Source: a virus. From it: 64,000 bases of DNA. The notes under the pieces are model-generated. The model searched no databases. It was not told the DNA's origin and saw only the letters and a program-made list of their open reading frames with translations. The position numbers and the translations under genes were made by a program. Positions 24,740 through 63,194 of the stretch are shown here, piece after piece; position 1 is the stretch's first letter; every line of letters begins with the position of its first letter. The stretch lies in the IMG/VR virus record IMGVR_UViG_3300037840_000148, positions 46,832 to 110,831 of that record. One strand, 5' to 3'.

Positions 24740-27154
24740 TTAAATCGCATACTCCTCCTCATAGACTTGTATCCGGTCTATGTAGTTATTTAGAAATTCG
24801 CTTCTAGGACCGAAATAACTCAACTCTAGATGCTTGGCTGCTCTGCTCGCCCCGACAAAAAATATTCTTTTCTCTTCCATAATTTCACCGTTTTTATGTG
24901 GAATTTTACCTTGACTACACCCAACTAGAAAAACATAATCGAATTCCAAACCCTTCGCTTTATGCACGGTGGCTAGAGTTAAACATTTTATTGCTTTCGT
25001 GGCGTATGCTAGCCTGCGGAGATAATTTAAAAACTCCGTGACATTACCCTTATTTGCGGACATCCTGACGGCATCATTAAGATTCTTAACGGGATCATTC
25101 TCGGCATCAGCTAGGTTTCGGTAGATCCAAATCAAATTATGCTTCGTAATCAAATCCGCTAAAACCTCATTAGCCGGACGAGTATCATTTGACTCCTTGG
25201 CTAATTTCAGAAGCCTTTTGACTTCCGACTGTTGCCAAAAACCATCTTTTCCTAAATATTTATAACGAATATTTCTGCTTGTACACGCTTTCTGAAACGC
25301 GAACAATTGTCGGTTAGTACGAGCCAAAATCGCTGTATGCTCCGGATCAGTAATTTTTGATAAAACCCGGTCGGCTTCTTGTAAATCATACGAATATTCA
25401 ACTACCGTAGGATCGACACCAACTTCATTATCAGTCGTCATGTGGCTTGCAATGCCGTTATCGACGGGCAAAATTTCCTTGAAAAATTCGACGAGCTTTT
25501 TAGTTGATCTGTAGTTTTGTCCAAGATATAAAGTTTTTGCATTTGGAAATCTCTCGTAAAACTTGGATAAGTTTCCAGCTTGGGCGCTTCTCCACTCATA
25601 AATACAATTTCCGACCGGAACATTATCTGCAATATAGGTGTGATCTTTTTCTACATCAAGAGAATAAACGGGGCCACAATATTTAATCTTTTTAATTTTT
25701 TGAATAAGAGAGCTCTTATATGTTTTCTTTGTTGGTAAATCCATTAATTTTTCCAAAAGATTGGCTGCAACCGTTTTAAAATATCCATGAAACTTTGTTC
25801 GATGTTTCTTTCTATTCCCCCAAGAAATTAAAGGGTATTCAAAAAGAAGCCCTTTTTCTAAAAGAAGATTAAATCCTCCCGCCCAAGACACCGATTTAAA
25901 AACTCTTTTAATTTGTTGACCCGTAACCGCTGTTCTATAATTATGAAAAGTTCGTTCAGGTATCTGATACTGTAAAGAATATATTTCTTCCCTAGTATGT
26001 GCCTCTGTATTGGATTCCACAACATCTAGTATCCACATCTTATCTGCTCGTTCCTGATATCCTCTATGAGATATTTGATTACCACCGCAGGCAGTTCTTA
26101 ACGTACTTGTTCCTATTCTGAATCCCCGATCTCTTCTCCACATCAAATATACAAAATGCGTTTTATTTTGTAACGCTTTTCGGTTAAATTTTGTCCAAAC
26201 GAAATGGTTTGGTGTGACTTTCGTAGTCTCATTATTCATTTCAATCTGTAAAAGATTTCCATCAAACTGACGTACTGCTCTGCGAAAACGACGGCCTTTT
26301 CCTAATCGCATTCTTTTTCCATAATGATCCCATGAAACAATCCGGTCGTTTGTTTCGGATAAAAGCTCAATTGGAACTTGCTTTACTTTTGCAGCTACTC
26401 GACCTTGAACCGGAGAAACCAAAACATCAACTAGAGTGCCGGGAGGCTGACATTGGTTTTCATCTCCAACCGCAAACATATTGCCGTCAAATATAAGCTG
26501 AAGCAGCCTGAACTGTTTTTCGTCCGTGTCTTGAGCCTCGTCAACCGCTATATACTTCCTTTTCCACCTTGCTAAAACTTCCAGATTGGTTTCAAATAGC
26601 TTTACAACTTCAGTAATGCAAGCATCAAAGTCCAACCAGCCTTCCAAACGCATGCCCTTTTCGTATTGTTCATAAGCCAATGAATAAACGTACTCTGCGC
26701 CTTGGTGTCTAGCTTCTTCCATTGCCGTGGCTGGATCAGTATTTTCACACTTCCACCGAGTAATTTTCTCTCTGAGCGTCTTGTACTGCAGTTGTGGAAA
26801 CTGCCGACAAAGCTCGGCCAAAAGCTGATAATCCTGAGCCTTGACGGGGATAATCTCGTCGCACAGTTCAAACGGCAGGTGCTCTCGTTCCTTCTTTAAG
26901 ACTTCCAACGCGAAGCTATGAAAAGTCCTAAACGATGACTTCGCGTCCGTCATCCCAATCCGTGTTTGCATCTGCTCGGCCGCGGCGTTTGTGAAGGTCA
27001 AATTCAGGATGTCCCGAGTGTTGATTCCACGAGTCAGCATCCGGATATACCGCTCTACCAAGACGGTCGTCTTGCCAGATCCTGGCCCTGCGATAGTTAC
27101 CCAGACACCATCAATAGCGTTAGCAGCTAGCTCCTGTTGAGGATTAAGAATCAC
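24740..27154 (-). CDS. uvrD: UvrD/PcrA-like SF1 helicase containing an intein
   Basis: AGPGSGKT, TFTN.AA, TFHS, VDEAQD, GDENQ|CIYEWR, QNYRS, TVHKAKGLEF. Confidence 0.92.
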   Translation of the reverse strand: MILNPQQELAANAIDGVWVTIAGPGSGKTTVLVERYIRMLTRGINTRDILNLTFTNAAAEQMQTRIGMTDAKSSFRTFHSFALEVLKKEREHLPFELCDEIIPVKAQDYQLLAELCRQFPQLQYKTLREKITRWKCENTDPATAMEEARHQGAEYVYSLAYEQYEKGMRLEGWLDFDACITEVVKLFETNLEVLARWKRKYIAVDEAQDTDEKQFRLLQLIFDGNMFAVGDENQCQPPGTLVDVLVSPVQGRVAAKVKQVPIELLSETNDRIVSWDHYGKRMRLGKGRRFRRAVRQFDGNLLQIEMNNETTKVTPNHFVWTKFNRKALQNKTHFVYLMWRRDRGFRIGTSTLRTACGGNQISHRGYQERADKMWILDVVESNTEAHTREEIYSLQYQIPERTFHNYRTAVTGQQIKRVFKSVSWAGGFNLLLEKGLLFEYPLISWGNRKKHRTKFHGYFKTVAANLLEKLMDLPTKKTYKSSLIQKIKKIKYCGPVYSLDVEKDHTYIADNVPVGNCIYEWRSAQAGNLSKFYERFPNAKTLYLGQNYRSTKKLVEFFKEILPVDNGIASHMTTDNEVGVDPTVVEYSYDLQEADRVLSKITDPEHTAILARTNRQLFAFQKACTSRNIRYKYLGKDGFWQQSEVKRLLKLAKESNDTRPANEVLADLITKHNLIWIYRNLADAENDPVKNLNDAVRMSANKGNVTEFLNYLRRLAYATKAIKCLTLATVHKAKGLEFDYVFLVGCSQGKIPHKNGEIMEEKRIFFVGASRAAKHLELSYFGPRSEFLNNYIDRIQVYEEEYAI
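25607..26452 (-). mobile_element. intein (282 aa) in helicase motif III
   Basis: starts CQPPGT; block B VTPNH; ends VYSLDVEKDHTYIADNVPVGN before +1 Cys. Confidence 0.88.
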
Positions 27155-53893: not shown

Positions 53894-54308
53894 GTTTTAG
53901 GCTAAGTTATTGAAAACATTACGCCGCTTGACCGCGGTTTTGACCGTAAGTCAAATACCTAATGAATGGCGCTTTGAAGAAAACAAAGAACTTGCAACGA
54001 TCTCACGCAACAAAATGCAACGAATCGAGCAGGACCGAAGCAACCAGAAAAGCGAAGTCCAAGCGGGCCGGGGAGTACGCTGAGAATTGTGGGATTAGAA
54101 ATTAATTAGTTAAGTTGCAGAATTGAAACGACTTAGGGAAGTTAAACTTGGTTTTTGACTGGAGGTGACCCCGCCCCAGCCGCCCGCCGTCGGTCGCCAC
54201 CGGTGACGTTGGCAAAGCCTATGCCCACCGGTACACCAACGATTCTTCCGTAAGTCCATGATAATACAATATATGCGGCAATCAGACCTTTATTTTAGGT
54301 CTTAATTT

Positions 54309-54366
54309 TGTACGTACATTGGCTCGGGGTGCCCTTAACACCCCGGGCTTTCCTTTAAGGGAGGAA
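54309..54366 (+). promoter_or_regulatory. TGTACGTACA plus kissing-loop leader, copy 1
   Basis: hairpin loops CCCTTAA and TTAAGGG are complementary; second stem contains AGGA. Confidence 0.8.
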
Positions 54367-54369
54367 AAT

Positions 54370-54798
54370 ATGAAAGTGATTTTGAGTAAAGAAGAGTGGT
54401 GCCAGTTTCGTAAGCCTTGCGTTTATAAGTTTATTGATGGCTTAGGTAATCCAATTTATATTGGGTTCGGAAGACATGGCTACGACCGCGTTTTTAATGG
54501 CCCTAGTCAAAAACATCTAAATAGAGAAACAGCTAAAGATGTTTGTTCGTCTGTTCAAGTTGAATTTTTTGATACACATCAAGAAGCCAATGATGCAGAG
54601 AATTTAGAAATTCATAAATACCACCCTATTTATAATAAGTGTTGTACTCTTTGCGCTGTTTACGATAAAATTAAAAAGAGTGGAGAACCAATCACTAGGA
54701 CGGTGATATCAAAGGCTAAGAAGGCCCCAAAGCCCGCTAAGTGGTTTCTTCTTAAATATCCAAATGGTATGACGAATTTAAAACCGTCGTCACAATAA
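54370..54798 (+). CDS. GIY-YIG endonuclease
   Basis: CVYKF...IYIG, R, E...I....P.YN; start placed at Met after GGAGG. Confidence 0.78.
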   Translation: MKVILSKEEWCQFRKPCVYKFIDGLGNPIYIGFGRHGYDRVFNGPSQKHLNRETAKDVCSSVQVEFFDTHQEANDAENLEIHKYHPIYNKCCTLCAVYDKIKKSGEPITRTVISKAKKAPKPAKWFLLKYPNGMTNLKPSSQ

Positions 54799-54825
54799 GA
54801 TAATTTGTCCGGTAGGAGCGTGGTC

Positions 54826-55890
54826 ATGGGTTTCAACCGACCATCAAGAACTACTCTGGACCCCACGCTGAGAAGTGTGGAATCACAGGATTTCCAAATA
54901 GCATTAGAAAGTAAAATAGTCGGTCAACCGGAAGGCATCAAGGCTCTCGTTGATCTGTATCAAGTCTTCCGCGCAGGAATGTCGTCTACTGGACGGCCGG
55001 TAGGTAATCTGTTATTTTTAGGTCCGACGGGATCAGGCAAGACTCGATTAGTCGAGGCCGCGGCTGAAGTTTTATTCGGCAACGCGAAGTCAATCATTAA
55101 AGCCGATTGTGCTGAATATCAACACTCACATGAAATCGCGAAAGTCATAGGTTCGCCTCCTGGTTACTTAGGGCACCGAGAAACGCACCCTTTATTCACT
55201 CAAGAAGCGCTCGACCAGTCGCACACGGAAAATTTAAAGTTGAGTTTCGTCCTGTTTGATGAAATCGAGAAAGCGAGTGACGCATTATGGCAACTTCTTC
55301 TCGGCGTCCTCGATAAAGCAACGCTGACACTCGGTGATAACCGAAAGGTAGACTTTTCCAGAACGATGATTTTCCTGACGTCAAATCTTGGCGGCCGGGA
55401 AATAACCGAACTTCTAACAGGCAAGATGGGCTTCACGCCACCCGAAGAACAGAACGCAAAATTAGACGGGAAGATTAAAATCACGGCAGAACACGCCGCG
55501 AGAAAAAAGTTCTCTCCGGAGTTCATGAATCGATTAGATAAAGTAGTCGTCTTTCATCCGTTACAGAAAGAACACCTCGAACAGATTCTGGATATCGAGT
55601 TAGCGATGGTTCAGGATAGAATTCTTAATACGACCCGTGAACTAGGTCAATTTTTGTTCAAGACGACAGCAAACGCCCGGGCATTCCTTCTTCAAGAAGG
55701 CATTGACATTAAATACGGCGCACGTCATTTGAAGCGAACAATCGAGCGTCAGATAGTCTATCCGTTAGCAAATTTAGTCGCAACAGACCAGATTCAATTC
55801 GGAGATTTGGTAACGATAGATTGGAATGGTACAGCCACACTGCTTTCATTCCAGAAGGAACGTGGCGCGGCACTAAGCCATCGAGCTTAA
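54826..55890 (+). CDS. stand-alone ClpA/ClpB D2-type AAA+ ATPase
   Basis: IVGQ, FLGPTGSGKT, IGSPPGYLG, FDEIEKA, TSNLG, PEFMNRLD, GAR.LKR. Confidence 0.9.
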   Translation: MGFNRPSRTTLDPTLRSVESQDFQIALESKIVGQPEGIKALVDLYQVFRAGMSSTGRPVGNLLFLGPTGSGKTRLVEAAAEVLFGNAKSIIKADCAEYQHSHEIAKVIGSPPGYLGHRETHPLFTQEALDQSHTENLKLSFVLFDEIEKASDALWQLLLGVLDKATLTLGDNRKVDFSRTMIFLTSNLGGREITELLTGKMGFTPPEEQNAKLDGKIKITAEHAARKKFSPEFMNRLDKVVVFHPLQKEHLEQILDIELAMVQDRILNTTRELGQFLFKTTANARAFLLQEGIDIKYGARHLKRTIERQIVYPLANLVATDQIQFGDLVTIDWNGTATLLSFQKERGAALSHRA

Positions 55891-55902
55891 GGAAAAACTA
55901 TA

Positions 55903-56109
55903 ATGGATACAACTAAAGTTTATTTTATCGATGAGTTTAAGTGGACGGCTTTTAGTGAAGACGAAGCCGTAGCTGCTTTAAAAAGTAAGATTAATTCAGG
56001 AAAATATTCTTATATTAAAACAGTCAATCCCAAAGACGTTGTACAGCTTTTTTATACTAAGGACGAAAAAACTTTTAGTTTTCCTATCTTAGTTTCTTCT
56101 TTGTTGTAA
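55903..56109 (+). CDS. hypothetical protein
   Basis: AAGGA SD, in chain. Confidence 0.5.
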   Translation: MDTTKVYFIDEFKWTAFSEDEAVAALKSKINSGKYSYIKTVNPKDVVQLFYTKDEKTFSFPILVSSLL

Positions 56110-56119
56110 AAGGAACACA

Positions 56120-56311
56120 ATGTGGACCGATAAAGAAATCGATTTGATAGTCCAGGCTTTGATTGATCCGCCGCCTTACGGGTTTACAGAATACGAGAAG
56201 AAAGAGTTTTTGGATTATCTAAAGCGCCCGTCAATATTCGACCAACGCCCCGTTATGTATAAGGGAGCAGCAATCCGTTCGTTTTTTAATTATGTTAAGG
56301 ACGAAGCTTAA
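56120..56311 (+). CDS. hypothetical protein
   Basis: AAGGA SD, in chain. Confidence 0.5.
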   Translation: MWTDKEIDLIVQALIDPPPYGFTEYEKKEFLDYLKRPSIFDQRPVMYKGAAIRSFFNYVKDEA

Positions 56312-56563
56312 ATGGACTCTAGAACACTCTTCTTAATAAATCTCACGAAGACAGATTTTGATAATCTCCATCACGCTAAGGTTATGTACAGCGGTTCGGC
56401 TGGTGATCCACATTTTGATAGCGACCCAACTCCTTGGGGATCTAACGCCCCGTACATCGCTTCTTTCGTAGGGCAGTTTTTTAAAGCGATAAGAGCGTTG
56501 AAGTGGAAGCGTTTTTCTGTTAAAGTAATTGAGGATCAGTGGTTCGTTAAAAGAATTCGATAA
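56312..56563 (+). CDS. hypothetical protein
   Basis: abuts upstream stop. Confidence 0.5.
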   Translation: MDSRTLFLINLTKTDFDNLHHAKVMYSGSAGDPHFDSDPTPWGSNAPYIASFVGQFFKAIRALKWKRFSVKVIEDQWFVKRIR

Positions 56564-56565
56564 AT

Positions 56566-57210
56566 ATGAAAGTCTTGATAGCCATACTCAGTTATAATCA
56601 AGGCCGACAGCATCATGAACTGATAAGAAACACTTGGCTACAAGGCTGCAAAACAGACTATAAGTTTATTTTAGGAAACGAAACTAAAGATCCGCAGCAG
56701 GATGAACTGGTTGTAGACTCCCAAGATACATACTACGACCTAATTTTTAAAGTCGAGAAGTCGGTCGAGTATGCATTGATTAATAATTATGATTATTTGT
56801 TTAGATGCGATCTTGATACCTATGTTTGTATAGATCGTCTCTTACGATCCGGATTCGAGCAACATGATTGGTCAGGATACGGAGAGCCTTACGGCGGAAG
56901 CGGTTATTGGCTTAGTCGGAAAGCAACGCAAGCCTTAATTGATAATACGAATTATCTTGATGTCTATGAAAGCGAAGATACTCACGTAGCTCGGATATTA
57001 CGCCAGCAAGGCTTTACACCTTTTCAAGACAGAAGGTACTATTCTTCAACCAATGAAGGTCCAAGCCTAGATAACGATTTAATCACCAGCCATTGGTATG
57101 TTGAGGTAAATGCCGTACGTAATGGTAAGATTTATGATCGCCGGATAGATTTATACGAACGTTTAAGACTGATTCCTGTTTATCATGAAAAAGCAAAATT
57201 TTTAAAATAG
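56566..57210 (+). CDS. GT31/Fringe-like glycosyltransferase
   Basis: IRNTW, DTYYDL.FK, RCDLDTY, GGSGYWLSRKA, SED..V. Confidence 0.78.
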   Translation: MKVLIAILSYNQGRQHHELIRNTWLQGCKTDYKFILGNETKDPQQDELVVDSQDTYYDLIFKVEKSVEYALINNYDYLFRCDLDTYVCIDRLLRSGFEQHDWSGYGEPYGGSGYWLSRKATQALIDNTNYLDVYESEDTHVARILRQQGFTPFQDRRYYSSTNEGPSLDNDLITSHWYVEVNAVRNGKIYDRRIDLYERLRLIPVYHEKAKFLK

Positions 57211-57213
57211 TGC

Positions 57214-57242
57214 TTGACAAAGATTCTAACCTGTGTTACCAT
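57214..57242 (+). promoter_or_regulatory. sigma70-type promoter
   Basis: TTGACA-17-TACCAT. Confidence 0.7.
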
Positions 57243-57430
57243 GCACTAGTTAGATGAGTCGCGCAAGCGACGGGAGGTGTAACGGCTTAAAGCAAGCTGA
57301 CAACTCTAAGATGAATAAATACAACTAAAAGCAAGACTCGTCGCCAGACGAGGTTGCCGCCGGGGAAATGACACCGCGAGCGCAACGCTACGACCGGTAT
57401 AAAAGTACCCGGCTTTAAATTTGAGGATTT

Positions 57431-57697
57431 ATGAAAACATCGATTCCAGTAGGACCAGGTAAGTCAACGCCAGAAGGCGGAACAACGCAACCTGCAGGAA
57501 AGTCGAGTGAGTGCGATGCAGTCTTAAGAAAGGGAAAGCTGCCTAAAGCTGAGAAGGTTACAGAAGCGCAGGAAGTAAAGGGTGCAGCACGGAAAGCAAT
57601 CGATATTCAAGTGATGGGTGACGGCGGAAGTTTGAGCCCCAACGCTAATGGGAAAAAACGCGGCCGTGCGGTGTGGGGAGTTAAGGAACCGGAATAA
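57431..57697 (+). CDS. hypothetical basic protein
   Basis: GAGGA SD, 88 aa. Confidence 0.55.
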   Translation: MKTSIPVGPGKSTPEGGTTQPAGKSSECDAVLRKGKLPKAEKVTEAQEVKGAARKAIDIQVMGDGGSLSPNANGKKRGRAVWGVKEPE

Positions 57698-57712
57698 TTA
57701 TTGAAATAGTAC

Positions 57713-57741
57713 TTGACAAAGATTCAAGATTGTGGTAATGT
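57713..57741 (+). promoter_or_regulatory. sigma70-type promoter of tRNA array
   Basis: TTGACA-17-TAATGT with TG extension. Confidence 0.7.
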
Positions 57742-57759
57742 ATAAAAAGAAAAGTTTAA

Positions 57760-57834
57760 GCAAGATTGGTCTAGCGCTCATGACGCCGCACCTGTAATGC
57801 GGAAGCCGAAGTTGGACTCTTCGATTTTGCTCCA
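57760..57834 (+). tRNA. tRNA-Thr(TGT), atypical
   Basis: cloverleaf; ccgca-CCTGTAA-tgcgg; CCA end. Confidence 0.65.
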
Positions 57835-57839
57835 AAGTT

Positions 57840-57891
57840 TGTACGTACAATTAGGGGGTGCTGCAACACCCCCACTAAACCTTTGCAGAGG
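57840..57891 (+). promoter_or_regulatory. TGTACGTACA plus kissing-loop leader, copy 2
   Basis: loops CTGCAA and TTGCAG; second stem CCT/AGG. Confidence 0.8.
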
Positions 57892-57898
57892 AGAATAG

Positions 57899-58252
57899 AT
57901 GTCTCATAAAGATTCTAAAGTTCGTTCTGATTATTATAAACAATGGTATCAAGAAAATAGAAGCGACGAAATCAAAAGAGCTAGAAGTAATCAAAATTAT
58001 TTAAGACAATTTATACAAACAAAGAAAGACGTTCCTTGTAAAGATTGTGGTATAAAGTATCCATATTACATTATGGCTTTTGATCACGTTCGAGGAAAGA
58101 AATTAGGTAATTTAAGTCGGATGCACGTCATGTTTGGAAAAGTTCAGATATTAAAAGAAATAGCGAAATGTGATGTTGTTTGTGCTAATTGTCATGCTGC
58201 CAGAACCTGGAAAAGATTAAAAGGCAGACTGAAAGATTGGACGGAGATTTAA
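57899..58252 (+). CDS. HNH-type endonuclease
   Basis: CKDCG, FDHVRG.K, EIAKCDVVCANCH..RT. Confidence 0.85.
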   Translation: MSHKDSKVRSDYYKQWYQENRSDEIKRARSNQNYLRQFIQTKKDVPCKDCGIKYPYYIMAFDHVRGKKLGNLSRMHVMFGKVQILKEIAKCDVVCANCHAARTWKRLKGRLKDWTEI

Positions 58253-58293
58253 CAGTTTAAGTCCTCGCACGTATTGTACGGTGAGGCAGGATA

Positions 58294-58364
58294 GGCTCTA
58301 AACGTGGGTTCGAGTCCCACACGATGCCTTCGGGGATTGTTCGTCTAGCGGTAGGACGAGAGCC
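58294..58364 (+). ncRNA. circularly permuted tRNA-like RNA (YrlA/Y-RNA-like module)
   Basis: T arm, then acceptor stem capped by cUUCGg, then D arm; closed by ggctct/agagcc. Confidence 0.7.
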
Positions 58365-58370
58365 ATGATT

Positions 58371-58444
58371 GTGGTCGTAGCCTAAAAGTAAGGCACGGGC
58401 CTGTGAAGCCTGTTAAGTGGGCGCGTTACCCACCGATCACCCCA
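58371..58444 (+). tRNA. tRNA-His(GTG)
   Basis: CTGTGAA loop, C73, CCA. Confidence 0.8.
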
Positions 58445-58445
58445 T

Positions 58446-58519
58446 ACGGGAATCTTATAGTGGCAGTATCTATGCGTCGGAAGCATAGGGCGCTGATTCG
58501 ATTTCAGCTTCCCGTACCA
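58446..58519 (+). tRNA. tRNA-Pro(CGG)
   Basis: tatgc-GTCGGAA-gcata, CCA. Confidence 0.75.
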
Positions 58520-58561
58520 ATTTTAGAAGTATAGTAATTGGAGTGTAGTATAGGAGTAAAA

Positions 58562-58858
58562 ATGGACGTCGTTTCTATTGTGGCGAATTTGCAAAAAGAA
58601 CGTGATTGGTATAAAGAACAGTTTAAAGAATGTCAAGCCATCATAAAGCAACTTGTCGATGGCCCTGGTGAGTTTGAATACATCCACCCGTTTGACGTCG
58701 CGGAGATGTTTAATATTGCTGGTGGCACCGATTTTATAGATGTCTTTACGAAGTCATCATACGCGGCAGATACGAACGGTTGTTTTATATGGGGTAGTTC
58801 CGGAAAGAAATACAAACAGTCTCCGAATATTCCGGCGAAGTCAAAGAATTTTAAATAA
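58562..58858 (+). CDS. hypothetical protein
   Basis: AGGAG SD before ATG at 58562. Confidence 0.6.
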   Translation: MDVVSIVANLQKERDWYKEQFKECQAIIKQLVDGPGEFEYIHPFDVAEMFNIAGGTDFIDVFTKSSYAADTNGCFIWGSSGKKYKQSPNIPAKSKNFK

Positions 58859-58933
58859 CGAGAAGTAGCTTAATAGCAGAGCACACGGTTTGGAGCCGTG
58901 GGGGTGTTCGTGCAATTCGAACTTTCTCGACCA
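58859..58933 (+). tRNA. tRNA-Pro(TGG)
   Basis: cacgg-TTTGGAG-ccgtg, CCA. Confidence 0.85.
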
Positions 58934-58938
58934 ATTTT

Positions 58939-59076
58939 ATGATAGCAACGTTAGCATTTTTAGCAGGAATGTTTTTCACCTTGATTGTCGCTCATACAAG
59001 AATGACATTCAAGAAAAAGGCCGCCCTCGTTGCATTAGCAGGAGCCGTGGTCGGAGTAATAATATTTTTAAGTTAG
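58939..59076 (+). CDS. small two-helix membrane protein (not in ORF track)
   Basis: MIATLAFLAGMFF...VVGVIIFLS fills the tRNA spacer; no SD. Confidence 0.45.
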   Translation: MIATLAFLAGMFFTLIVAHTRMTFKKKAALVALAGAVVGVIIFLS

Positions 59077-59152
59077 GCTGTCTGACGTAACTGGTAAACG
59101 TGTTGGTTTCAAAAACCAAATTCTCTGAGTTCGAGTCTCAGGATAGCCACCA
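59076..59152 (+). tRNA. tRNA-Leu(CAA), short variable arm
   Basis: ttggt-TTCAAAA-accaa, TTCGAGT loop, CCA. Confidence 0.75.
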
Positions 59153-59153
59153 T

Positions 59154-59241
59154 ATCGGTATGGCGAAATTGGCGAGACGCAATTGGCTTAAACCCAATCG
59201 GGGTCATACCCATACAGGTTCGAATCCTGTTACCGATACCA
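59154..59241 (+). tRNA. tRNA-Leu(TAA)
   Basis: class II cloverleaf, CCA. Confidence 0.9.
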
Positions 59242-59248
59242 AATTTAT

Positions 59249-59334
59249 CCGTCGCTGGTGGAAATGGCGAGACACGATAGTCTTAGAAACTATTGGAGAA
59301 ATCCGTGAAAGTTCGAATCTTTCGCGACGGACCA
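59249..59334 (+). tRNA. tRNA-Leu(TAG)
   Basis: class II cloverleaf, CCA. Confidence 0.9.
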
Positions 59335-59430
59335 TTTTAGTACCGCTGCCTGTGGTAAAAGGCAACGCCCTCGTCAAGGAAGTCGTGACGTAAACCGAGG
59401 CGTAAAGAGTATCGGTCTTAAATTTTCAGT

Positions 59431-59504
59431 GGGCTTTTGGTCTACCGCGATGACGGATGTTTTGCAAACATCAAGAAGCAGTTGGATTCTGCTAAGGTCC
59501 ACCA
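59431..59504 (+). tRNA. tRNA-Ala(TGC)
   Basis: G3:U70 pair, TTTGCAA loop, CCA. Confidence 0.82.
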
Positions 59505-59512
59505 TTTTCTAA

Positions 59513-59585
59513 TGCGGGAAGCTTTGGTAAGCAGGTAGCTCTCATAAGGCTCGCCACCGCGATTCGATTTCGCGTCCCGCGACCA
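59513..59585 (+). tRNA. tRNA-Met/Ile2(CAT)
   Basis: CTCATAA loop, CCA. Confidence 0.7.
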
Positions 59586-59593
59586 TTTTCAAA

Positions 59594-59667
59594 GCGTTCA
59601 TGGCCGATTGGTTAGGCACTTGGCTTCCACCCAGGACAAGCGAATTCGATTTTCGCTGAACGCTCCA
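59594..59667 (+). tRNA. tRNA-Gly(TCC)
   Basis: CTTCCAC loop, U73, CCA. Confidence 0.88.
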
Positions 59668-59740
59668 AGATTGTCGAAGCGCAGGACTGGTAGAGCCCGT
59701 AAACTCGGAGCACCGGTTTTAAGCGGTCGACAAGCATTTC

Positions 59741-59814
59741 GCGGCTCTCGTATATTGGCAGTACGAGACCTTGCCAAGGTTTAAGAAGGGGTCCGATTCC
59801 CCTGAGCCGCTCCA
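59741..59814 (+). tRNA. tRNA-Gly(GCC)
   Basis: TTGCCAA loop, U73, CCA. Confidence 0.88.
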
Positions 59815-59989
59815 AGTTTCTCAGTCGTGTGGATAGTATCGCGCTGAAACGAGTTGAGGGTGAGCCGTCAGGCTACGAGAAACACCCAACACTTCCGCTC
59901 CCGCGCCGACTACTTTACGCTCGTTCTTTGTGGATCTCGGGGCTTTCGGGCACCGAATAAGGTCGGTCACACGACATTTTTTTTTCTAA

Positions 59990-60064
59990 GCAGGGCTGGT
60001 CCAGTGTCCAAGACGCGCCCCTCGTAAGGTCGAAACCGAAGTTAAATTCTTCGGCCCTGCTCCA
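59990..60064 (+). tRNA. tRNA-Thr(CGT)
   Basis: CTCGTAA loop, CCA. Confidence 0.75.
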
Positions 60065-60065
60065 A

Positions 60066-60139
60066 GCCGAAGTAGTTCAATGTTAGAACGGTGCATTGGT
60101 AATGCACAGGCTCAGGTTAGATTCCTGGCTTTGGCTCCA
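60066..60139 (+). tRNA. tRNA-Thr(GGT)
   Basis: TTGGTAA loop, CCA. Confidence 0.88.
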
Positions 60140-60146
60140 GTTTTTA

Positions 60147-60221
60147 GCAGAGGTAGTTTAGCAGGAAAAATAAATCCTCGGTAAGGATTAGTCTCGGGTT
60201 CGAAGCCCGACATCTGCTCCA
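60147..60221 (+). tRNA. tRNA-Thr(GGT), atypical second copy
   Basis: aatcc-TCGGTAA-ggatt, CCA. Confidence 0.65.
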
Positions 60222-60295
60222 TGTTTCAACGGGACGGGATAAGCCATTCGCGAATGGATAAGCCTGAGGTCATAACTCTAACGTCCCCCAGTTTT

Positions 60296-60372
60296 GGGTT
60301 GCTAGTGTCAATACGTAACACAGCGGACTTTTAATCCGACGAATCTTGGTGCAAATCCAAGGCGACCCACCA
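60296..60372 (+). tRNA. tRNA-Lys(TTT)
   Basis: CTTTTAA loop, CCA. Confidence 0.85.
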
Positions 60373-60478
60373 ATTTCTACGGGATCTGAATTCGAAAAGA
60401 AACGAATAGTCATCGTGAAAACTAGTGAGTAGCGATGAAAGGTGTTGGTTAAAATTCCGGCCGATCCCAGACATTTGT

Positions 60479-60554
60479 GAACTGCAGGTGTTAGCGACAG
60501 CATTCTTCCCTCTTAAGGAATGAGGTCCGGGTTTGAGCCCCGGGCGGTTCACCA
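60479..60554 (+). tRNA. tRNA-Lys(CTT)
   Basis: CTCTTAA loop, CCA. Confidence 0.78.
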
Positions 60555-60715
60555 AGTTTGTTTAAGTCGAGGGAATTGCCGACTGAAGAAATTCAGCGGT
60601 TCGACTAGGTTATGTCACGGCGATGCATAGGATAAAGGAAGCCCTCCTGACTGTGTTATCTTCGAACTCTACCGAATGACTGCTGTGATGAGTCGGTAGT
60701 AAACAAAAAAGTTAA

Positions 60716-60790
60716 GGGCTTATCGTCCAATGGATAAGACGCGGCGCTACGAAAGCCGAAACCAAGGTCCAAATCCTTGTAGGCCCTCCA
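60716..60790 (+). tRNA. tRNA-Arg(ACG)
   Basis: CTACGAA loop, CCA. Confidence 0.88.
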
Positions 60791-60891
60791 GTATTTATCG
60801 GTATACTGGCATGAATGACCCGGGACATCACCGGAGCCCGGTATTCACGTTAAGTAAACCGAAAGCGAGTGAGAGTCTCGCAACATTTTAT

Positions 60892-60967
60892 GATCCTGTC
60901 GTCCAAATGAATAGGGCTTCAGTCTTCGAAACTGATTATCTCGGTTTGAGTCCGAGCAGGATCTCCA
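60892..60967 (+). tRNA. tRNA-Arg(TCG)
   Basis: CTTCGAA loop, CCA. Confidence 0.85.
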
Positions 60968-61030
60968 ATTTTATGTAATGCGATGCGTTGGTCCTAAGTG
61001 TGGTTGACAGGGACATCTGGCCCGGCATTA

Positions 61031-61071
61031 ACGCCTGACGAGACGAAAGTCGAAACGGGAAACCGTAGCGT
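61031..61071 (+). ncRNA. type I hammerhead ribozyme
   Basis: acgc-CTGACGA-gac(GAAA)gtc-GAAA-cgg(GAAA)ccg-TA-gcgt; full core, GUA cleavage triplet. Confidence 0.88.
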
Positions 61072-61131
61072 GGAGTCGCCCCTGCCGGGGAATAAATGGC
61101 GACCTATAGACCACACACTTTTTATTTTAAT

Positions 61132-61206
61132 ACGCGACTGGCAGATCGTTACATGCAACGGCCCTACACGCCGTCCAGCGAGGTTAGACTCCTCGGTTGC
61201 GTACCA
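61132..61206 (+). tRNA. tRNA-Val(TAC)
   Basis: acggc-CCTACAC-gccgt, CCA. Confidence 0.75.
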
Positions 61207-61296
61207 TCTTGATTAGAGTGGACACCGCGGTGCCGCGCTCTGTAATGTCCGAGGTTTGGTGAACTTAACCTCGTAAAAATAATCACCAGACTTTGA

Positions 61297-61386
61297 TGTC
61301 GGCAGCATTAGATGCAGCGCGGTCTTATAAGCCGCGAAACACCCGATAAGTGTGCCGAGATGGGGCAGAACCATCGCCGACAACCA
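61297..61386 (+). tRNA. tRNA-Ile(TAT)-like, long variable arm
   Basis: gcggt-CTTATAA-gccgc, 7-bp acceptor stem, CCA; atypical D and T loops. Confidence 0.6.
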
Positions 61387-61466
61387 ATTTGCAGGCGCTT
61401 GCGCCGCAACGATGCGTAACATGACAAAGGGCGATTACCAGTCATGGGTAGATCGCTCGACATTTT

Positions 61467-61540
61467 AGCCTGTTAGTGCAATGGCAGCACACTAGACTTT
61501 CAATCTAGTAGCGCGGGTCCGATTCCCGCACGGGCGACCA
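61467..61540 (+). tRNA. tRNA-Glu(TTC)
   Basis: CTTTCAA loop, CCA. Confidence 0.82.
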
Positions 61541-61544
61541 TATT

Positions 61545-61621
61545 CGGCGGGTAGCTCAATTGAAAAGAGCAATCCTCTTCTAAAGGAAAGATTGTGGGTT
61601 TGAGTCCCACCCTGTCGACCA
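61545..61621 (+). tRNA. tRNA-Arg(TCT)
   Basis: CTTCTAA loop, CCA. Confidence 0.85.
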
Positions 61622-61630
61622 TTTTAGTTT

Positions 61631-61973
61631 TGGTAGTCTAGGCAATCGCGGCGGATGGTATGCTGAATCCTGATTGATAATCAGGTAGGGAAACCGAAGC
61701 AAAGAGTCCCGTCGAGGAAAGTCAGGACTCACGAGTCACGACACGGTGGAAGCTGCCGGGTGAGTAATCACACGAGTAAGGCTTTGTATATGTTATTTTA
61801 TATCAAACTAAAGATCTGATATAAATTAACATATCATTCAAGCGAAGTAACTCTCTGTCGGAGCAACTTCAAGTAGGCCGAGAGCCAGACTCAGGCGATG
61901 ACCGGCGGGTGAAGGCATAGACGAATGATTGCCGCGGCGCAAGCCGAACCGAATCCTGCTTATCAGACCGCCA
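61631..61973 (+). ncRNA. rnpB: RNase P RNA
   Basis: CR-I GAGGAAAGTCAGG pairs with CR-V ACCGAATCCTGCTTA; P1 and P2 (gcaatc/gattgc) present; GAGCAA and TAGACGAATGA motifs. Confidence 0.88.
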
Positions 61974-61984
61974 TTAAATTTTAT

Positions 61985-62060
61985 TGTCGAGTAGCTCAAA
62001 TGGACAGAGCGCTAATTTCCTAAATTAGTAATTCGGGTTCGACCCCCGACTTGACAACCA
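61985..62060 (+). tRNA. tRNA-Arg(CCT)
   Basis: TTCCTAA loop, CCA. Confidence 0.88.
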
Positions 62061-62065
62061 TTTTC

Positions 62066-62153
62066 GGATAGTTCGTATAGCGCCAATTACTGCTGGCTGT
62101 AAACCAGCCGCTCCATGTGAGCTTCCAAGGTTGGAGTCCTTGACTATCCACCA
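62066..62153 (+). tRNA. tRNA-Tyr(GTA)
   Basis: CTGTAAA loop, long variable arm, CCA. Confidence 0.85.
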
Positions 62154-62167
62154 TTTTAATTTTCAAT

Positions 62168-62243
62168 TGTCATCTGGTCTAATCGGCAAGATGGGGCACT
62201 GTTAATGCCTAAGATCTCGGTTCGAATCCGAGGGTGACAGCCA
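62168..62243 (+). tRNA. tRNA-Asn(GTT)
   Basis: CTGTTAA loop, G73, CCA. Confidence 0.88.
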
Positions 62244-62251
62244 ATTTCAAC

Positions 62252-62329
62252 GAGGGTGTCGCGTAGAGGCCAATCGCACTGTCCTGTCACGACAGACTAT
62301 CGTGGGTTCGACTCCCATCACTCTCGCCA
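62252..62329 (+). tRNA. tRNA-Asp(GTC)
   Basis: CTGTCAC loop, G73, CCA. Confidence 0.9.
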
Positions 62330-62336
62330 TTTCAAA

Positions 62337-62413
62337 CTACTCGATGCCGAAGTGGCCGAGGCGGAAGTTTGCAAAACTTCTCTTAGGGAGTTCAAGCCTC
62401 CCCGGGTAGTCCA
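62337..62413 (+). tRNA. tRNA-Cys(GCA)
   Basis: TTGCAAA loop, U73, CCA. Confidence 0.85.
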
Positions 62414-62414
62414 A

Positions 62415-62488
62415 GGCTTTGTCATCTAATGACAGGATACGCGGTTCTCATCCGCGGCATACGGGTTTGATCCCCGTCAGAGCCCCCA
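62415..62488 (+). tRNA. tRNA-Glu(CTC)
   Basis: cgcgg-TTCTCAT-ccgcg, CCA. Confidence 0.78.
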
Positions 62489-62493
62489 ATTTT

Positions 62494-62553
62494 TGTACGT
62501 ACAATTAGATGGGACGTGCCAGATACACGTCCCGTCAACTCTTATCTGGAGAG
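62494..62553 (+). promoter_or_regulatory. TGTACGTACA plus kissing-loop leader, copy 3
   Basis: loops CCAGATA and TATCTGG; second stem CTCT/AGAG. Confidence 0.8.
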
Positions 62554-62557
62554 CAAA

Positions 62558-62980
62558 ATGAAGATATGTATTAAGTGTGGAAAAGAGGGTGAGTTTTTTA
62601 TACGTTCCGATAACGGAAAAGAATATTCTCGTTGTAAGAAATGTACCACTTTGTATAATAAAAATTATCACGCTAAAAATCTTTTACAAGAAAGAGAACG
62701 TAGTCGACTTAAACATTATAAACAAAAATACGGAATAACTTGGGAAGATAAGATCCGTATGTACGAAGAATAGAAAGGAGTTTGTGCTTGTTGTTTTAAG
62801 ATATTACCTCCTGTGACGGATGTAGAAGTTTGTGTAGATCATGATCATGAAGCTAAAAAAGTTCGGGCTTTAGTACACCGCGATTGCAATTGGTTGATAG
62901 GTTGGATAGAAAATCATCCTGAGTTGGTGCAACCAGCCCTTAATTATGTTGATAGATTTAAAAATATGAGAGTCGTTTAA
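62558..62980 (+). pseudogene. endonuclease VII-family gene interrupted by an in-frame TAG (62771-62773)
   Basis: YGIT...MYEE*KGVCACC...VDHDH..KKVRALVHRDCN continues in frame. Confidence 0.8.
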
Positions 62981-63040
62981 CGGCTAGGACTGCGGTCTCC
63001 AAAACCGCGTATGGTGGTTCGATTCCATCCTCTCATGCCA
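62966..63040 (+). tRNA. tRNA-Trp(CCA)
   Basis: CTCCAAA loop, G73, CCA. Confidence 0.9.
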
Positions 63041-63104
63041 TCTTGATCCTTGATTCAATTGGGGAAAAATCGTAGGTAGGTTGAAACCCCTACCCCAAGT
63101 TTAC

Positions 63105-63194
63105 GGTTGATTGGCAGAGAGGCTGATCGCAGAACTTTGCTAAAGTTCCATACTCGAAAGGGTATCGTAGGTTCAAATCCTACATCAACCGCCA
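63105..63194 (+). tRNA. tRNA-Ser(GCT)
   Basis: TTGCTAA loop, long variable arm, G73, CCA. Confidence 0.9.

Follow-up and report, generated by a model that had tools for sequence, protein, structure and literature searches.

We found that an RNA leader of ∼60 nt, located in front of nuclease genes in an uncultured soil phage with a genome of 110,831 bp (∼111 kb), carries two hairpins whose loops are complementary to each other far beyond chance. As judged from its sequence, this leader is probably the 5′ untranslated region of free-standing homing-endonuclease genes and would act in cis as a translational lock on their ribosome binding site. It most likely keeps nuclease output low on heavily transcribed tRNA operons. 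An earlier note had described three such leaders ahead of three nuclease genes in a window of 64,000 nt of this genome, and all three are indeed present there on the plus strand (Table 1).

In each of these copies, the palindrome TTTGTACGTACAWT is followed by a GC-rich first hairpin (H1) closed by GUG/CAC, a small second hairpin (H2), and then the nuclease open reading frame (ORF). Every time, the H1 and H2 loops are exactly complementary, and the pairs originally listed (CCCTTAA/TTAAGGG, CTGCAA/TTGCAG, and CCAGATA/TATCTGG) proved correct without exception. H2 also carries the Shine-Dalgarno sequence, which in copy 1 (AAGGGAGGA) covers the 3′ end of the H2 loop together with the 3′ arm. Covariation of both helices and folding place the Shine-Dalgarno sequence in paired positions of the leader structure, namely, in the 3′ end of loop 2 and the 3′ arm of H2. 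When each hairpin was folded alone, the energies were −13 to −20 kcal/mol for H1 versus −2.4 to −5.8 kcal/mol for H2; with a strong H1 and an H2 that is weak by itself, the energy for masking would come from the loop pairing. The sequence TTGTACGTACA has three exact occurrences in the 110,831-bp genome, at leaders 1 to 3 only. A fourth leader copy lies in the genome outside the window (13786-13866), with a sigma70 promoter ahead of it and no palindrome.

Table 1. Leader copies, cargo genes, and neighboring features in the window
Feature	Position	Strand	Description
Terminator-like hairpin	54284-54302		Directly 5′ of copy 1 palindrome
Copy 1 palindrome element	54307-54320	+	TTTGTACGTACATT; perfect core TGTACGTACA at 54309-54318
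Copy 1 H1	54321-54349	+	11 bp, GUG/CAC closing; loop CCCUUAA (54332-54338); −20.3 kcal/mol
Copy 1 H2	54350-54366	+	Loop UUAAGGG (54355-54361), complement of H1 loop; about −5.8 kcal/mol alone
Cargo 1	54370-54798	+	ATG 54370; 142-aa ORF, GIY-YIG-like, motif VYKF...PIYIGFG
Sigma70-type promoter	∼57713-57741	+	TTGACA-N17-TAATGT (extended −10); upstream of tRNA-Thr
tRNA-Thr(tgt)	57760-57834	+	Ends 3 nt before copy 2 palindrome element
Copy 2 palindrome element	57838-57851	+	TTTGTACGTACAAT; perfect 12-mer TTGTACGTACAA at 57839-57850
Copy 2 H1	57854-57873	+	7 bp, GUG/CAC closing; loop CUGCAA (57861-57866); −13.2 kcal/mol
Copy 2 H2	57880-57891	+	CCU/AGG stem; loop UUGCAG (57883-57888), complement of H1 loop; Shine-Dalgarno AGAGGAG; −2.4 kcal/mol alone
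Cargo 2	57899-58252	+	ATG 57899; 117-aa HNH endonuclease; phrog_2255 (E = 5e-21), phrog_3106 (E = 1e-19)
tRNA-Glu(ctc)	62415-62488	+	Ends 3 nt before copy 3 palindrome element
Copy 3 palindrome element	62492-62505	+	TTTGTACGTACAAT; perfect 12-mer at 62493-62504
Copy 3 H1	62508-62536	+	11 bp, GUG/CAC closing; loop CCAGAUA (62519-62525); −18.2 kcal/mol
Copy 3 H2	62539-62553	+	CUCU/AGAG stem; loop UAUCUGG (62543-62549), complement of H1 loop; Shine-Dalgarno UGGAGAG; −3.9 kcal/mol alone
Cargo 3	62558-62980	+	ATG 62558; Endonuclease VII-family ORF, in-frame TAG at 62771-62773
tRNA-Trp	62966-63040		Overlapped by 3′ part of cargo 3

The loop pairing was found to hold across a large number of copies. 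A pattern scan of viral contigs, in which the palindrome was optional and the five inner positions of the loop could be any base, yielded 89 matches, in 82 of which the loops were complementary at 7/7 positions; 42 distinct loop sequences were observed. Among 44 palindrome-type copies, the loop helix was 98.3% paired, with both sides changed at five of the seven pairs. Among 107 distinct copies detected by a family model that carries no loop-loop term, the loop helix was 97.7% paired, H1 98.4% (each of its eight pairs showing double changes), and H2 99.3%. All four pair types occurred at three positions of the loop helix, and 33 to 63 sequences were doubly changed at four positions. The observed loop-helix score was reached by none of 500 shuffles, and registers that had been slid gave 46 to 58%. 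Compensatory change thus bears out the selected loop-loop pairing that had been claimed from three copies. The CC-GG pairs are invariant, and covariation therefore provides no proof that they pair.

A covariance model recovered 112 leader copies in uncultured phage and metagenome contigs, and model R1 detected four in the phage's own genome; in five other complete phages of 100 to 117 kb, it detected one to five each. The genes downstream were recorded, as the earlier note had proposed. The cargo behind the leader is almost always a nuclease, and the 98 ORFs recorded include Endonuclease_7 (22 ORFs), GIY-YIG (20, plus SegE/T5orf172), several HNH families, LAGLIDADG (2), and PD-(D/E)XK (1), representing at least five superfamilies. 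The start codon lies 7 to 9 nt past the end of loop 2 in 92/108 copies. Cargo was unrelated in 14 of the 25 leader pairs that share at least 88% identity, and such near-identical leaders ahead of unrelated ORFs mark the leader as a portable 5′ module, in agreement with the suggested cassette with exchangeable nuclease cargo. The related idea of a mobile element was not supported: a search for a conserved 3′ end of the cassette found none, so that only the 5′ module is shared and the unit is not a mobile element delimited on both sides. Recombination close to the start codon has put the leader ahead of these different nucleases.

The family assignments made for the three cargo genes of the window stood to different degrees. 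In cargo 1 the GIY-YIG motif is visible, but the match to the family (PF01541) is weak, at 13.6 bits against a cut-off of 22.6 (Pfam E = 0.085; PHROG endonuclease, E = 4e-4). The PHROG profiles identify cargo 2 as an HNH endonuclease, as had been stated; it has no Pfam match at E ≤ 0.01, and the nearest homologues from cultured phages are HNH genes located next to tRNAs in phages of Streptomyces and Mycobacterium. Cargo 3 does match the Endonuclease VII family (PF02945, 53 bits, E = 3e-14), but its ORF is not intact, since the domain crosses the in-frame TAG and the match requires read-through. The intact ORF has 71 aa and lacks the catalytic part. We looked for a suppressor tRNA and for a sign of TAG recoding and found neither. 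HNH and Endonuclease VII enzymes have the ββα-metal fold in common, and the three nucleases, although from different families, are therefore not wholly unrelated, contrary to the original description.

Placement of the leaders in tRNA operons was corroborated. Most palindrome-type copies begin 1 to 4 nt past the CCA end of a tRNA, and among the TACGTA-type copies a tRNA ends 15 to 22 nt before H1 in 14 of 25. The sigma70-type promoter in front of tRNA-Thr would cotranscribe this tRNA and cassette 2. Copy 1 is situated behind the terminator-like hairpin and has no recognizable sigma70 promoter nearby, an arrangement that counts against the lock as the best explanation. The palindrome, which had been taken as part of the shared leader, turned out not to belong to its core: the short form is absent in 61 of 108 nonredundant copies, 46 of which are without any palindrome and 15 of which have a different one in the spacer of a sigma70 promoter. 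Relatives have a genuine sigma70 promoter directly 5′ of the palindrome, which places the transcription start within the palindrome. The palindrome would seem to have been added in certain lineages at the very 5′ terminus of the mRNA, where transcription starts or just past the 3′ end of a tRNA. It is not a −10 box and may serve as an RNA self-pairing element (the role that appears most likely to us).

In the proposed lock, a very stable H1 presents a 6- to 7-nt loop beginning with CC, and its partner is the loop of the weak H2. The Shine-Dalgarno sequence is split: the GG of its GGAG belongs to the H2 loop, whereas AG(A/G)G, which comes next, belongs to the 3′ arm of H2. Because of this split both helices would have to open before a 30S subunit could bind. 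We infer repression of translation from the position of the Shine-Dalgarno sequence alone. The lock would hold down nuclease synthesis on transcripts that should be abundantly made, since sigma70 promoters of the host type drive the tRNA operon in which the nuclease genes lie. We see no evident mechanism of release, and in the sigma70-type copies the gene's own transcript carries the whole module.

A simple static lock appears to be incomplete, given the crude A-form geometry of the fold. According to an ideal-helix estimate, which allows no bending and is not real three-dimensional modeling, copies 1 and 3 leave no room for the 7-bp loop helix and H2 to form in cis beside a full H1 (needed span of 54 to 62 Å versus a linker reach of 6 to 20 Å), whereas the coexistence of all three is borderline in copy 2. 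In the same crude model, an H-type pseudoknot is borderline at an 11-bp H1 and fails at 15 to 17 bp. For copies 1 and 3, the literal kissing complex with both hairpins whole, as first envisaged, thus appears to be ruled out in cis on steric grounds, and this incompatibility within one molecule leaves two options, a conformational switch and pairing in trans. A switch, which we regard as a possible but not a probable reading, would mean that a long H1 can either keep its lower part paired or engage in the loop-loop lock but not both: H1 would be fully zipped in the open state, with weak H2 alone on the Shine-Dalgarno sequence, and frayed to ∼7 bp in the locked state, with the loop helix formed. 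Lower-stem length would then set the expression of each copy, or an event at the 5′ end would shift the balance. Consistent with this, ∼14 nt (SD 3) separate the H1 apex from loop 2 at any H1 length, and H1 has at least 10 bp in 49/108 copies versus a chance expectation of ∼5%, with compensated lower pairs. The lengths of H1 and linker are anticorrelated (rho = −0.60, P = 9e-12), although this is partly built in because extra H1 pairs leave the linker count. The geometry fails with full H1 and is borderline feasible with a 7-bp H1, but only as far as the crude estimate can be trusted, and no trigger was identified. Such a switch refines the lock and does not contradict it. Pairing in trans, with the palindrome as an RNA self-dimerization site and loop 1 of one mRNA bound to loop 2 of another, would shut the lock only at high transcript abundance, as a concentration-dependent brake. 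Besides the steric problem in cis, which follows from both loops lying 10 to 17 nt apart on one mRNA, the palindromes themselves fit this scheme: the symmetric variants GTACGTAC, GTAGCTAC, GATGCATC, and GTGCAC are all perfect through the center, palindrome length varies from 10 to 15 nt, and imperfect ones deviate by G·U three times and by A·C never, albeit in tiny counts. A contig may also contain differing variants, and these would be hard to attribute to one protein with a fixed specificity. Nevertheless, we consider pairing in trans rather improbable, since the short palindrome is missing in 61/108 copies, same-genome copies avoid shared loops no more than by chance (0/30 versus 1.1 expected, P = 0.31), and dimerizing bacterial mRNAs are unusual; covariation does not distinguish cis from trans.

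The palindrome could alternatively act at the DNA level, as an operator bound by a dimeric repressor or a roadblock protein, which would add a second, transcriptional layer of control similar to I-TevI self-repression; we think this unlikely. Its dyad symmetry is preserved through symmetric double substitutions, it lies 0 to 3 nt past the sigma70 −10 box in five relatives, the classic operator position at +1, and 28 of its 33 sites belong to nuclease leaders, making it nearly exclusive to them. Another promoter class has a different palindrome filling the −35/−10 spacer, and multilayered control including the I-TevI operator has been reviewed for T4 (PMC2988022). However, different palindrome types share a contig, their length varies (10 to 15 bp, including an odd-centered form), the tRNA-adjacent copies, including all three described here, have no promoter to control, and no candidate binding protein was identified. 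Least probable, and in our view very doubtful, is a T4-style arrangement in which TACAAT/TACATT serves as the −10 box, so that transcripts starting inside H1 escape the lock while read-through transcripts are locked. It has a precedent in T4 (PMC2988022), the TACAWT end lies 6 to 10 nt before the GUG of H1, such that a start ∼7 nt further on would fall in the H1 5′ arm, and copy 1, with the terminator-like hairpin just 5′, has no other promoter in sight. Yet the last T of the hexamer varies in the family (TACATC, TACAAC, TACAAG, TACGCG, and TACATA), TACAWT has neither a −35 element nor an extended −10, and relatives carry a real sigma70 promoter immediately 5′ of the palindrome. The phage uses consensus sigma70 promoters elsewhere, and the TACAWT palindrome has only three copies genome-wide. 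The −10 box that the earlier note had raised as a possibility is thus not supported.

The cis-acting lock that we favor belongs to a large leader family that is absent from Rfam and for which we found no description in the literature searched. As anticipated, no named RNA family matched: searches of the leaders with Rfam 15 gave only chance-level scores (at best 13.2 bits, E = 1.5, tpke11). The int-alpA RNA (RF02996) resembles the leader as a small orphan structured RNA tied to mobile-element genes. Membership in this family was rejected, since a search of the whole genome, leaders included, with its model (gathering threshold, 35.8 bits) gave nothing at E ≤ 10, nor did 14 other leader loci give a match at E ≤ 1.

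ColE1 RNA I/RNA II and R1 CopA/CopT form antisense kissing complexes with fully paired 6- to 7-nt loops. Like the leader, they have loops complementary over their whole length and flanked by closing stems, but two separate RNAs are involved, whereas both leader loops reside on one mRNA. The T4 gene 32 leader is an H-type pseudoknot, a gene-specific translational operator bound by the autoregulatory protein. There, too, a hairpin loop pairs with downstream sequence beside a phage ribosome binding site; in contrast, the nuclease leader has no spare loop nucleotides to cross the grooves, the downstream sequence that it pairs with forms the loop of another hairpin, and its cargo proteins are mutually unrelated. 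HIV-1 DIS and the loop-loop dimers of the bicoid 3′ untranslated region use palindromic dimerization sites in which, as in the leader palindrome, letters vary while self-complementarity is kept, and bicoid has two complementary loops on one RNA. The leader palindrome, however, which most family members lack, is linear or at most forms a minimal hairpin of 4 bp. A functional parallel may be drawn to the homing-endonuclease genes of T-even phages (I-TevI, I-TevII, I-TevIII, segB, and Aeh1 mobE), which are repressed by RNA structures sequestering the ribosome binding site (PMC2988022). In both cases, a cis RNA structure hides the Shine-Dalgarno sequence on long polycistronic transcripts, presumably limiting or timing nuclease synthesis. 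The T-even structures are single gene-specific hairpins bypassed by an internal late promoter, whereas no bypass promoter yielding transcripts without the inhibitory arm was found for the leader, sigma70 starts in its relatives lying at or before H1. Unlike these hairpins, the leader is a portable two-hairpin module with a covarying loop helix that recurs in many phages before nucleases of at least five superfamilies.

The three leaders within the window lie where the earlier note had placed them, in front of the GIY-YIG-like gene 1, the HNH gene 2 and the EndoVII gene 3 (copies 1, 2 and 3, respectively), and share a four-part layout. The palindrome element TTTGTACGTACAWT is followed, after 0 to 2 nt, by a GC-rich hairpin of 7 to 11 bp with a GUG/CAC closure and a 6- to 7-nt loop (H1); after another 0 to 6 free nucleotides comes a second hairpin of 3 to 5 bp (H2), the loops of H1 and H2 being exact reverse complements, and the start codon is found 8 to 10 nt beyond the end of loop 2. 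The 11-mer TTGTACGTACA has three sites genome-wide, all at copies 1 to 3. The GGAG Shine-Dalgarno sequence reaches from the end of loop 2 into the 3' arm of H2, with the loop-loop helix contributing 6 to 7 base pairs over its GG and H2 covering the remainder. Folding energies are -13 to -20 kcal/mol for H1 and -2.4 to -5.8 kcal/mol for H2 alone, so that H2 would mask the Shine-Dalgarno sequence poorly without loop pairing. A role of H1 as an intrinsic terminator was rejected, since a T-rich tail is present in copy 1 only.

The promoter of a fourth copy, located outside the window, is of the sigma70 type (TTGACA-N17-TAGAAT), and its spacer contains an inverted repeat; this copy lacks the short palindrome, and thus both upstream architectures occur within one phage. 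The H1 of copy 4 is closed by AUG/CGU, its loops are CCUCGAA/UUCGAGG, and its cargo, a 262-aa open reading frame (ORF) beginning MNKIVKGIIYHV, has no Pfam hit and by eye looks like a GIY-YIG protein.

Positions of the leader-associated and neighboring features
Feature	Reference	Position	Strand
Tyrosine-integrase-like ORF	window	740-1732	-
UvrD-like helicase ORF	window	24740-27154	-
Gene 1 (GIY-YIG-like), start	window	54370	+
sigma70 promoter with extended -10	window	57713-57741	
tRNA genes (28)	window	57760-63194	
Candidate empty site (rejected)	window	57834->58254	
Gene 2 (HNH), start	window	57899	+
Spacer, HNH stop to tRNA-His	window	58254-58370	
tRNA T-arm and acceptor 3' half	window	~58290-58335	
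RNase P RNA-like gene	window	61630-61978	+
Gene 3 (EndoVII), start	window	62558	+
In-frame TAG of gene 3	window	62771-62773	
End of open frame of gene 3	window	62980	
Copy 4 leader	genome	13786-13866	
Region of copy 4 (L234:263-1146)	genome	13762-14645	
Group I intron-like match	L143	542-811	+
Decayed cassette	L205	1803	

In viral and metagenome contigs, searching with the palindrome and the GTG...CAC pattern yielded ∼20 true copies, with nine loop pairs that were all perfectly complementary. The palindrome was left out of the pattern in a second search round, so that the search itself could not produce its conservation. With the commonest loop pair alone, the module was retrieved in two further settings, one with textbook sigma70 promoters and one with a different palindrome, TTTGATGCATCA, ahead of it, and the loop-agnostic pattern GTGCC-N5-CAC ... 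CTCT-N5-GGAGAG gave 89 matches, 82 of which were complementary at all seven loop positions. Pooling left 108 copies after removal of redundancy, among which 42 different loop sequences were counted. A covariance model (R1) with 44 copies as input contained only H1 and H2 and was thus blind to the loop-loop pairing; it recovered 112 copies among the fetched loci, corresponding to 107 distinct sequences. In these, the loop-loop helix was 97.7% paired, with all four Watson-Crick pair types at three positions and changes on both sides in 33 to 63 sequences at four positions, and H1 (98.4% paired, double changes at 8/8 pairs) and H2 (99.3%) were similarly preserved. None of 500 shuffles came up to these figures, and pairing fell to 46 to 58% when the partner was slid by 1 to 3 columns. 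The proposal that the loops stay complementary within each copy under compensatory change thus holds across the family.

Exactly four model copies are present in this genome, and 1 to 5 in each of five other complete phages of 100 to 117 kb. When each prokaryote species was represented by one genome, the palindrome pattern matched 23 times, and the leader structure was present at none of these sites. Among copies sharing a genome, 0/30 pairs had identical loops versus 1.1 expected (P 0.31), a difference compatible with chance as well as with selection for different loops. In one 39-kb viral contig, a match resembling a group I intron (RF00028, 35.7 bits with gathering at 50, E 1.5e-5) lies ∼1.8 kb upstream of a leader copy.

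Pfam assignment of 98 distinct downstream ORFs identified Endonuclease_7 in 22, GIY-YIG in 20 (plus SegE, T5orf172, and MUG113), NUMOD3 in 18, HNH families in several, LAGLIDADG in 2 and PD-(D/E)XK in 1; by PHROG names, too, nearly all of the cargo consists of nucleases. The similarity of the cargo was at chance level in 14 of 25 copy pairs whose leaders are at least 88% identical, and in the sequences inspected the leader identity stops a few bases at most from the start codon. Together, these observations provide direct evidence for the leader being a portable module that was joined to different nucleases. Of the two possibilities raised in the earlier note, the portable cassette is hence borne out, its nuclease cargo being exchangeable; a mobile element with a conserved 3' end was not found, as there is no shared downstream motif and the cassettes end -15 to +17 nt from the next tRNA or beside tRNA fragments. 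In one decayed cassette of a relative, the palindrome survives and is joined to what is left of the 3' part of an HNH gene.

The genome contains 32 tRNA genes, most of them clustered around cassettes 2 and 3 (see table). In 14 of 25 copies with the short TACGTA-type palindrome, a tRNA called by ARAGORN ends 15 to 22 nt ahead of H1, which places the palindrome 1 to 4 nt past the CCA, and several further copies of this type follow tRNA-like 3' ends that have no ARAGORN call. A sigma70 promoter with an extended -10 just upstream of tRNA-Thr would put cassette 2 within the tRNA primary transcript.

Gene 2 is clearly an HNH endonuclease (phrog_2255, E 5e-21); gene 1 resembles GIY-YIG enzymes in its motif, and its profile support is weak. 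Gene 3 matches the Endonuclease VII family (PF02945, E 3e-14) only with read-through of an in-frame TAG, the domain crossing this stop, and its frame remains open until it overlaps tRNA-Trp. Rescue by TAG recoding or suppression was rejected, since a suppressor tRNA is absent among the 32 tRNAs and no ORF-length signal was seen, and gene 3 is thus probably a decaying homing-endonuclease gene broken by a nonsense codon. Homologues of the gene 2 HNH protein are encoded directly after a tRNA in the Streptomyces phages Bartholomune and Spilled (L235 and L236) and in Mycobacterium phage Phabba (L237), where the gene abuts the next tRNA as well; the two-loop module is absent before these three homologues, which have a plain long hairpin instead. 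Between the HNH stop codon and tRNA-His, the spacer contains tRNA debris, namely a T-arm with an acceptor 3' half and an apparent tRNA 5' half fused ahead of tRNA-His, and similar tRNA halves follow the cassette stop codons in four other loci (L141, L006, L097, and L175). This suggests that neighboring tRNA genes were damaged by cassette insertion or exchange. Among contigs from three DNA runs, a freshwater relative gave a candidate empty site that would extend from the end of the tRNA to a point just beyond the HNH stop codon; it was not counted as evidence, because it came from one contig of depth 2.3 with 85% likeness on a 24-nt side. The ClpB-like neighbor, used as bait for an allele without cassette 1, retrieved one distant relative (L233, 48% identity).

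The virus record, from soil, is complete at 110,831 bp with terminal repeats, the window being its right-hand 64 kb. It has no close cultured relative: megablast gave no match, and neither did blastn when the region and two of the leaders were compared with 50,697 phage records. This 111-kb phage looks virulent but for one ORF that resembles a tyrosine integrase (phrog_1, E 4e-27; weak Pfam Phage_integrase). It also encodes a UvrD-like helicase of 804 aa. Among cultured phages, the best matches to this protein are helicases of SPO1-like Bacillus phages that contain inteins (∼27% identity); the PHROG alignment extends across 791 residues versus ∼530 profile positions, so that this ORF, too, may contain an intein or insert. 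A gene resembling bacterial class-A RNase P RNA (RF00010, 84.9 bits with gathering at 100, E 2e-26, entire model covered) is flanked by tRNA-Arg(tct) and tRNA-Arg(cct) inside the tRNA cluster. It retains the universal core blocks GAGGAAAGUC, AUAGACGAAUGA, and GAAUCCUGCUUA, with several peripheral helices shortened; if it is a true RNase P RNA, its presence in a phage would be unusual.

The suggestion that TACAAT/TACATT serves as a -10 box did not survive comparison across the family, where the last T is lost (TACATC, TACAAC, TACAAG, and TACGCG), a -35 is absent, and five relatives carry a true promoter farther upstream. A promoter at TACAWT is thus a weak reading, even with copy 1 following a terminator-like hairpin and no sigma70 promoter seen nearby. 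A Bacteroidota-type promoter (TAnnTTTG) as an explanation of TTTG was likewise discarded, given that the family depends on a strong Shine-Dalgarno sequence and the phage uses TTGACA-N17-TAnnnT promoters. In 26 copies with recognizable sigma70 promoters, the -10 box ends 3 to 31 nt (mostly 7 to 11 nt) ahead of H1, and the cassette's own transcript therefore carries the whole module. The palindrome itself is tightly linked to the leader, preceding one at 28 of 33 sites in the 875 kb of DNA that palindrome-free patterns had retrieved. It could possibly be an operator: a true promoter lies 0 to 3 nt upstream of it in five relatives, so that transcription would start inside the palindrome, at the +1 position. 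However, symmetric variants are diverse (GTACGTAC, GTAGCTAC, GATGCATC, GTGCAC, a 14-mer, and an odd-centered 15-mer), and different types are found within one contig, which speaks against a single protein of fixed specificity. Among the few imperfect palindromes, G.U deviations occur three times and A.C never. Both observations make us lean, from small numbers, towards the palindrome being a nucleic-acid self-pairing element. In another phage lineage (L188, L194, L198, L202, L208, L213, and others), the leader stands behind a highly conserved TTGACA-spacer-TAAGAT promoter with a palindromic spacer centered on TTGCAA, GGCC, or GATC, the arms of which covary; two candidate identities of this spacer are an operator and an upstream terminator that overlaps with the promoter.

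The simplest reading, and most likely the correct one, is that the leader acts as a translational lock in cis. The loop of the stable H1 would pair with loop 2, the resulting helix hiding the GG of GGAG and H2 the rest, which would keep nuclease output low on abundant tRNA-operon transcripts. The geometry of the module complicates this picture. Throughout the family, loop 2 keeps a distance of ∼14 nt (standard deviation, 3) from the top of H1, a longer H1 accompanies a shorter linker (rho -0.60), and H1 reaches at least 10 bp in 49 of 108 copies versus ∼5% expected by chance. By a crude estimate from ideal A-form parameters, a straight or 120-degree-bent stack of full H1, loop helix, and H2 would separate the stem bases by 54 to 62 Å in copies 1 and 3, where the linker of 0 to 2 nt reaches at most 6 to 20 Å. 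A classical pseudoknot with the H2 5' arm crossing is borderline at 11 bp (41.8 Å versus 39 to 45 Å) and fails at 15 to 17 bp, and the three helices become just feasible with H1 frayed to 7 bp.

If this estimate holds, the three covarying helices would not form simultaneously in one molecule, which would point to either a two-state switch, with the lower H1 stem competing with the lock, or pairing between molecules; the covariation is equally compatible with both. The steric puzzle and the self-complementary palindrome leave space for a mechanism beyond masking of the ribosome binding site (RBS). One such scheme, which we regard as a long shot, is a concentration-sensing lock in which the palindrome would pair two mRNAs of the same nuclease and loop 1 of each would pair with the RBS loop of the other, giving shut-off only when the transcript is abundant; copy-specific loops and palindromes would then form an address code against cross-talk between cassettes.

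Whichever mechanism applies, one portable RNA module with very clean covariation serves nucleases of at least five superfamilies and recurs in many uncultured phages of ∼100 kb, mostly within tRNA operons. Being short, well defined, and experimentally tractable, it is a candidate for a new Rfam family and a marker by which free-standing homing-endonuclease genes can be located in metagenomes, together with the points where they inserted, and its 42 orthogonal loop pairs could supply a natural parts list for tunable translational locks. No described family in Rfam 15 matches the leaders at E ≤ 10; int-alpA (RF02996) has no match in the genome at E ≤ 10, nor in 14 other loci at E ≤ 1, and a full-text literature search found no description of the element.

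Homing endonucleases are toxic passengers, and most of what is understood of their silencing comes, to our knowledge, from a small number of T4 genes, all of which have private hairpins. The nearest precedent, as described in PMC2988022, is found in T-even homing-endonuclease genes, whose leaders contain hairpins that sequester the RBS. The T4 structures in that account are gene-private single hairpins bypassed by an internal late promoter, whereas the leader here is a portable two-hairpin module common to many genes, and no bypass promoter was seen in the 26 copies with recognizable sigma70 promoters. We therefore regard it as known that phage homing-endonuclease genes are controlled at translation by sequestering the RBS, and the widespread, portable loop-loop RNA module that would do so here as new and previously undescribed.
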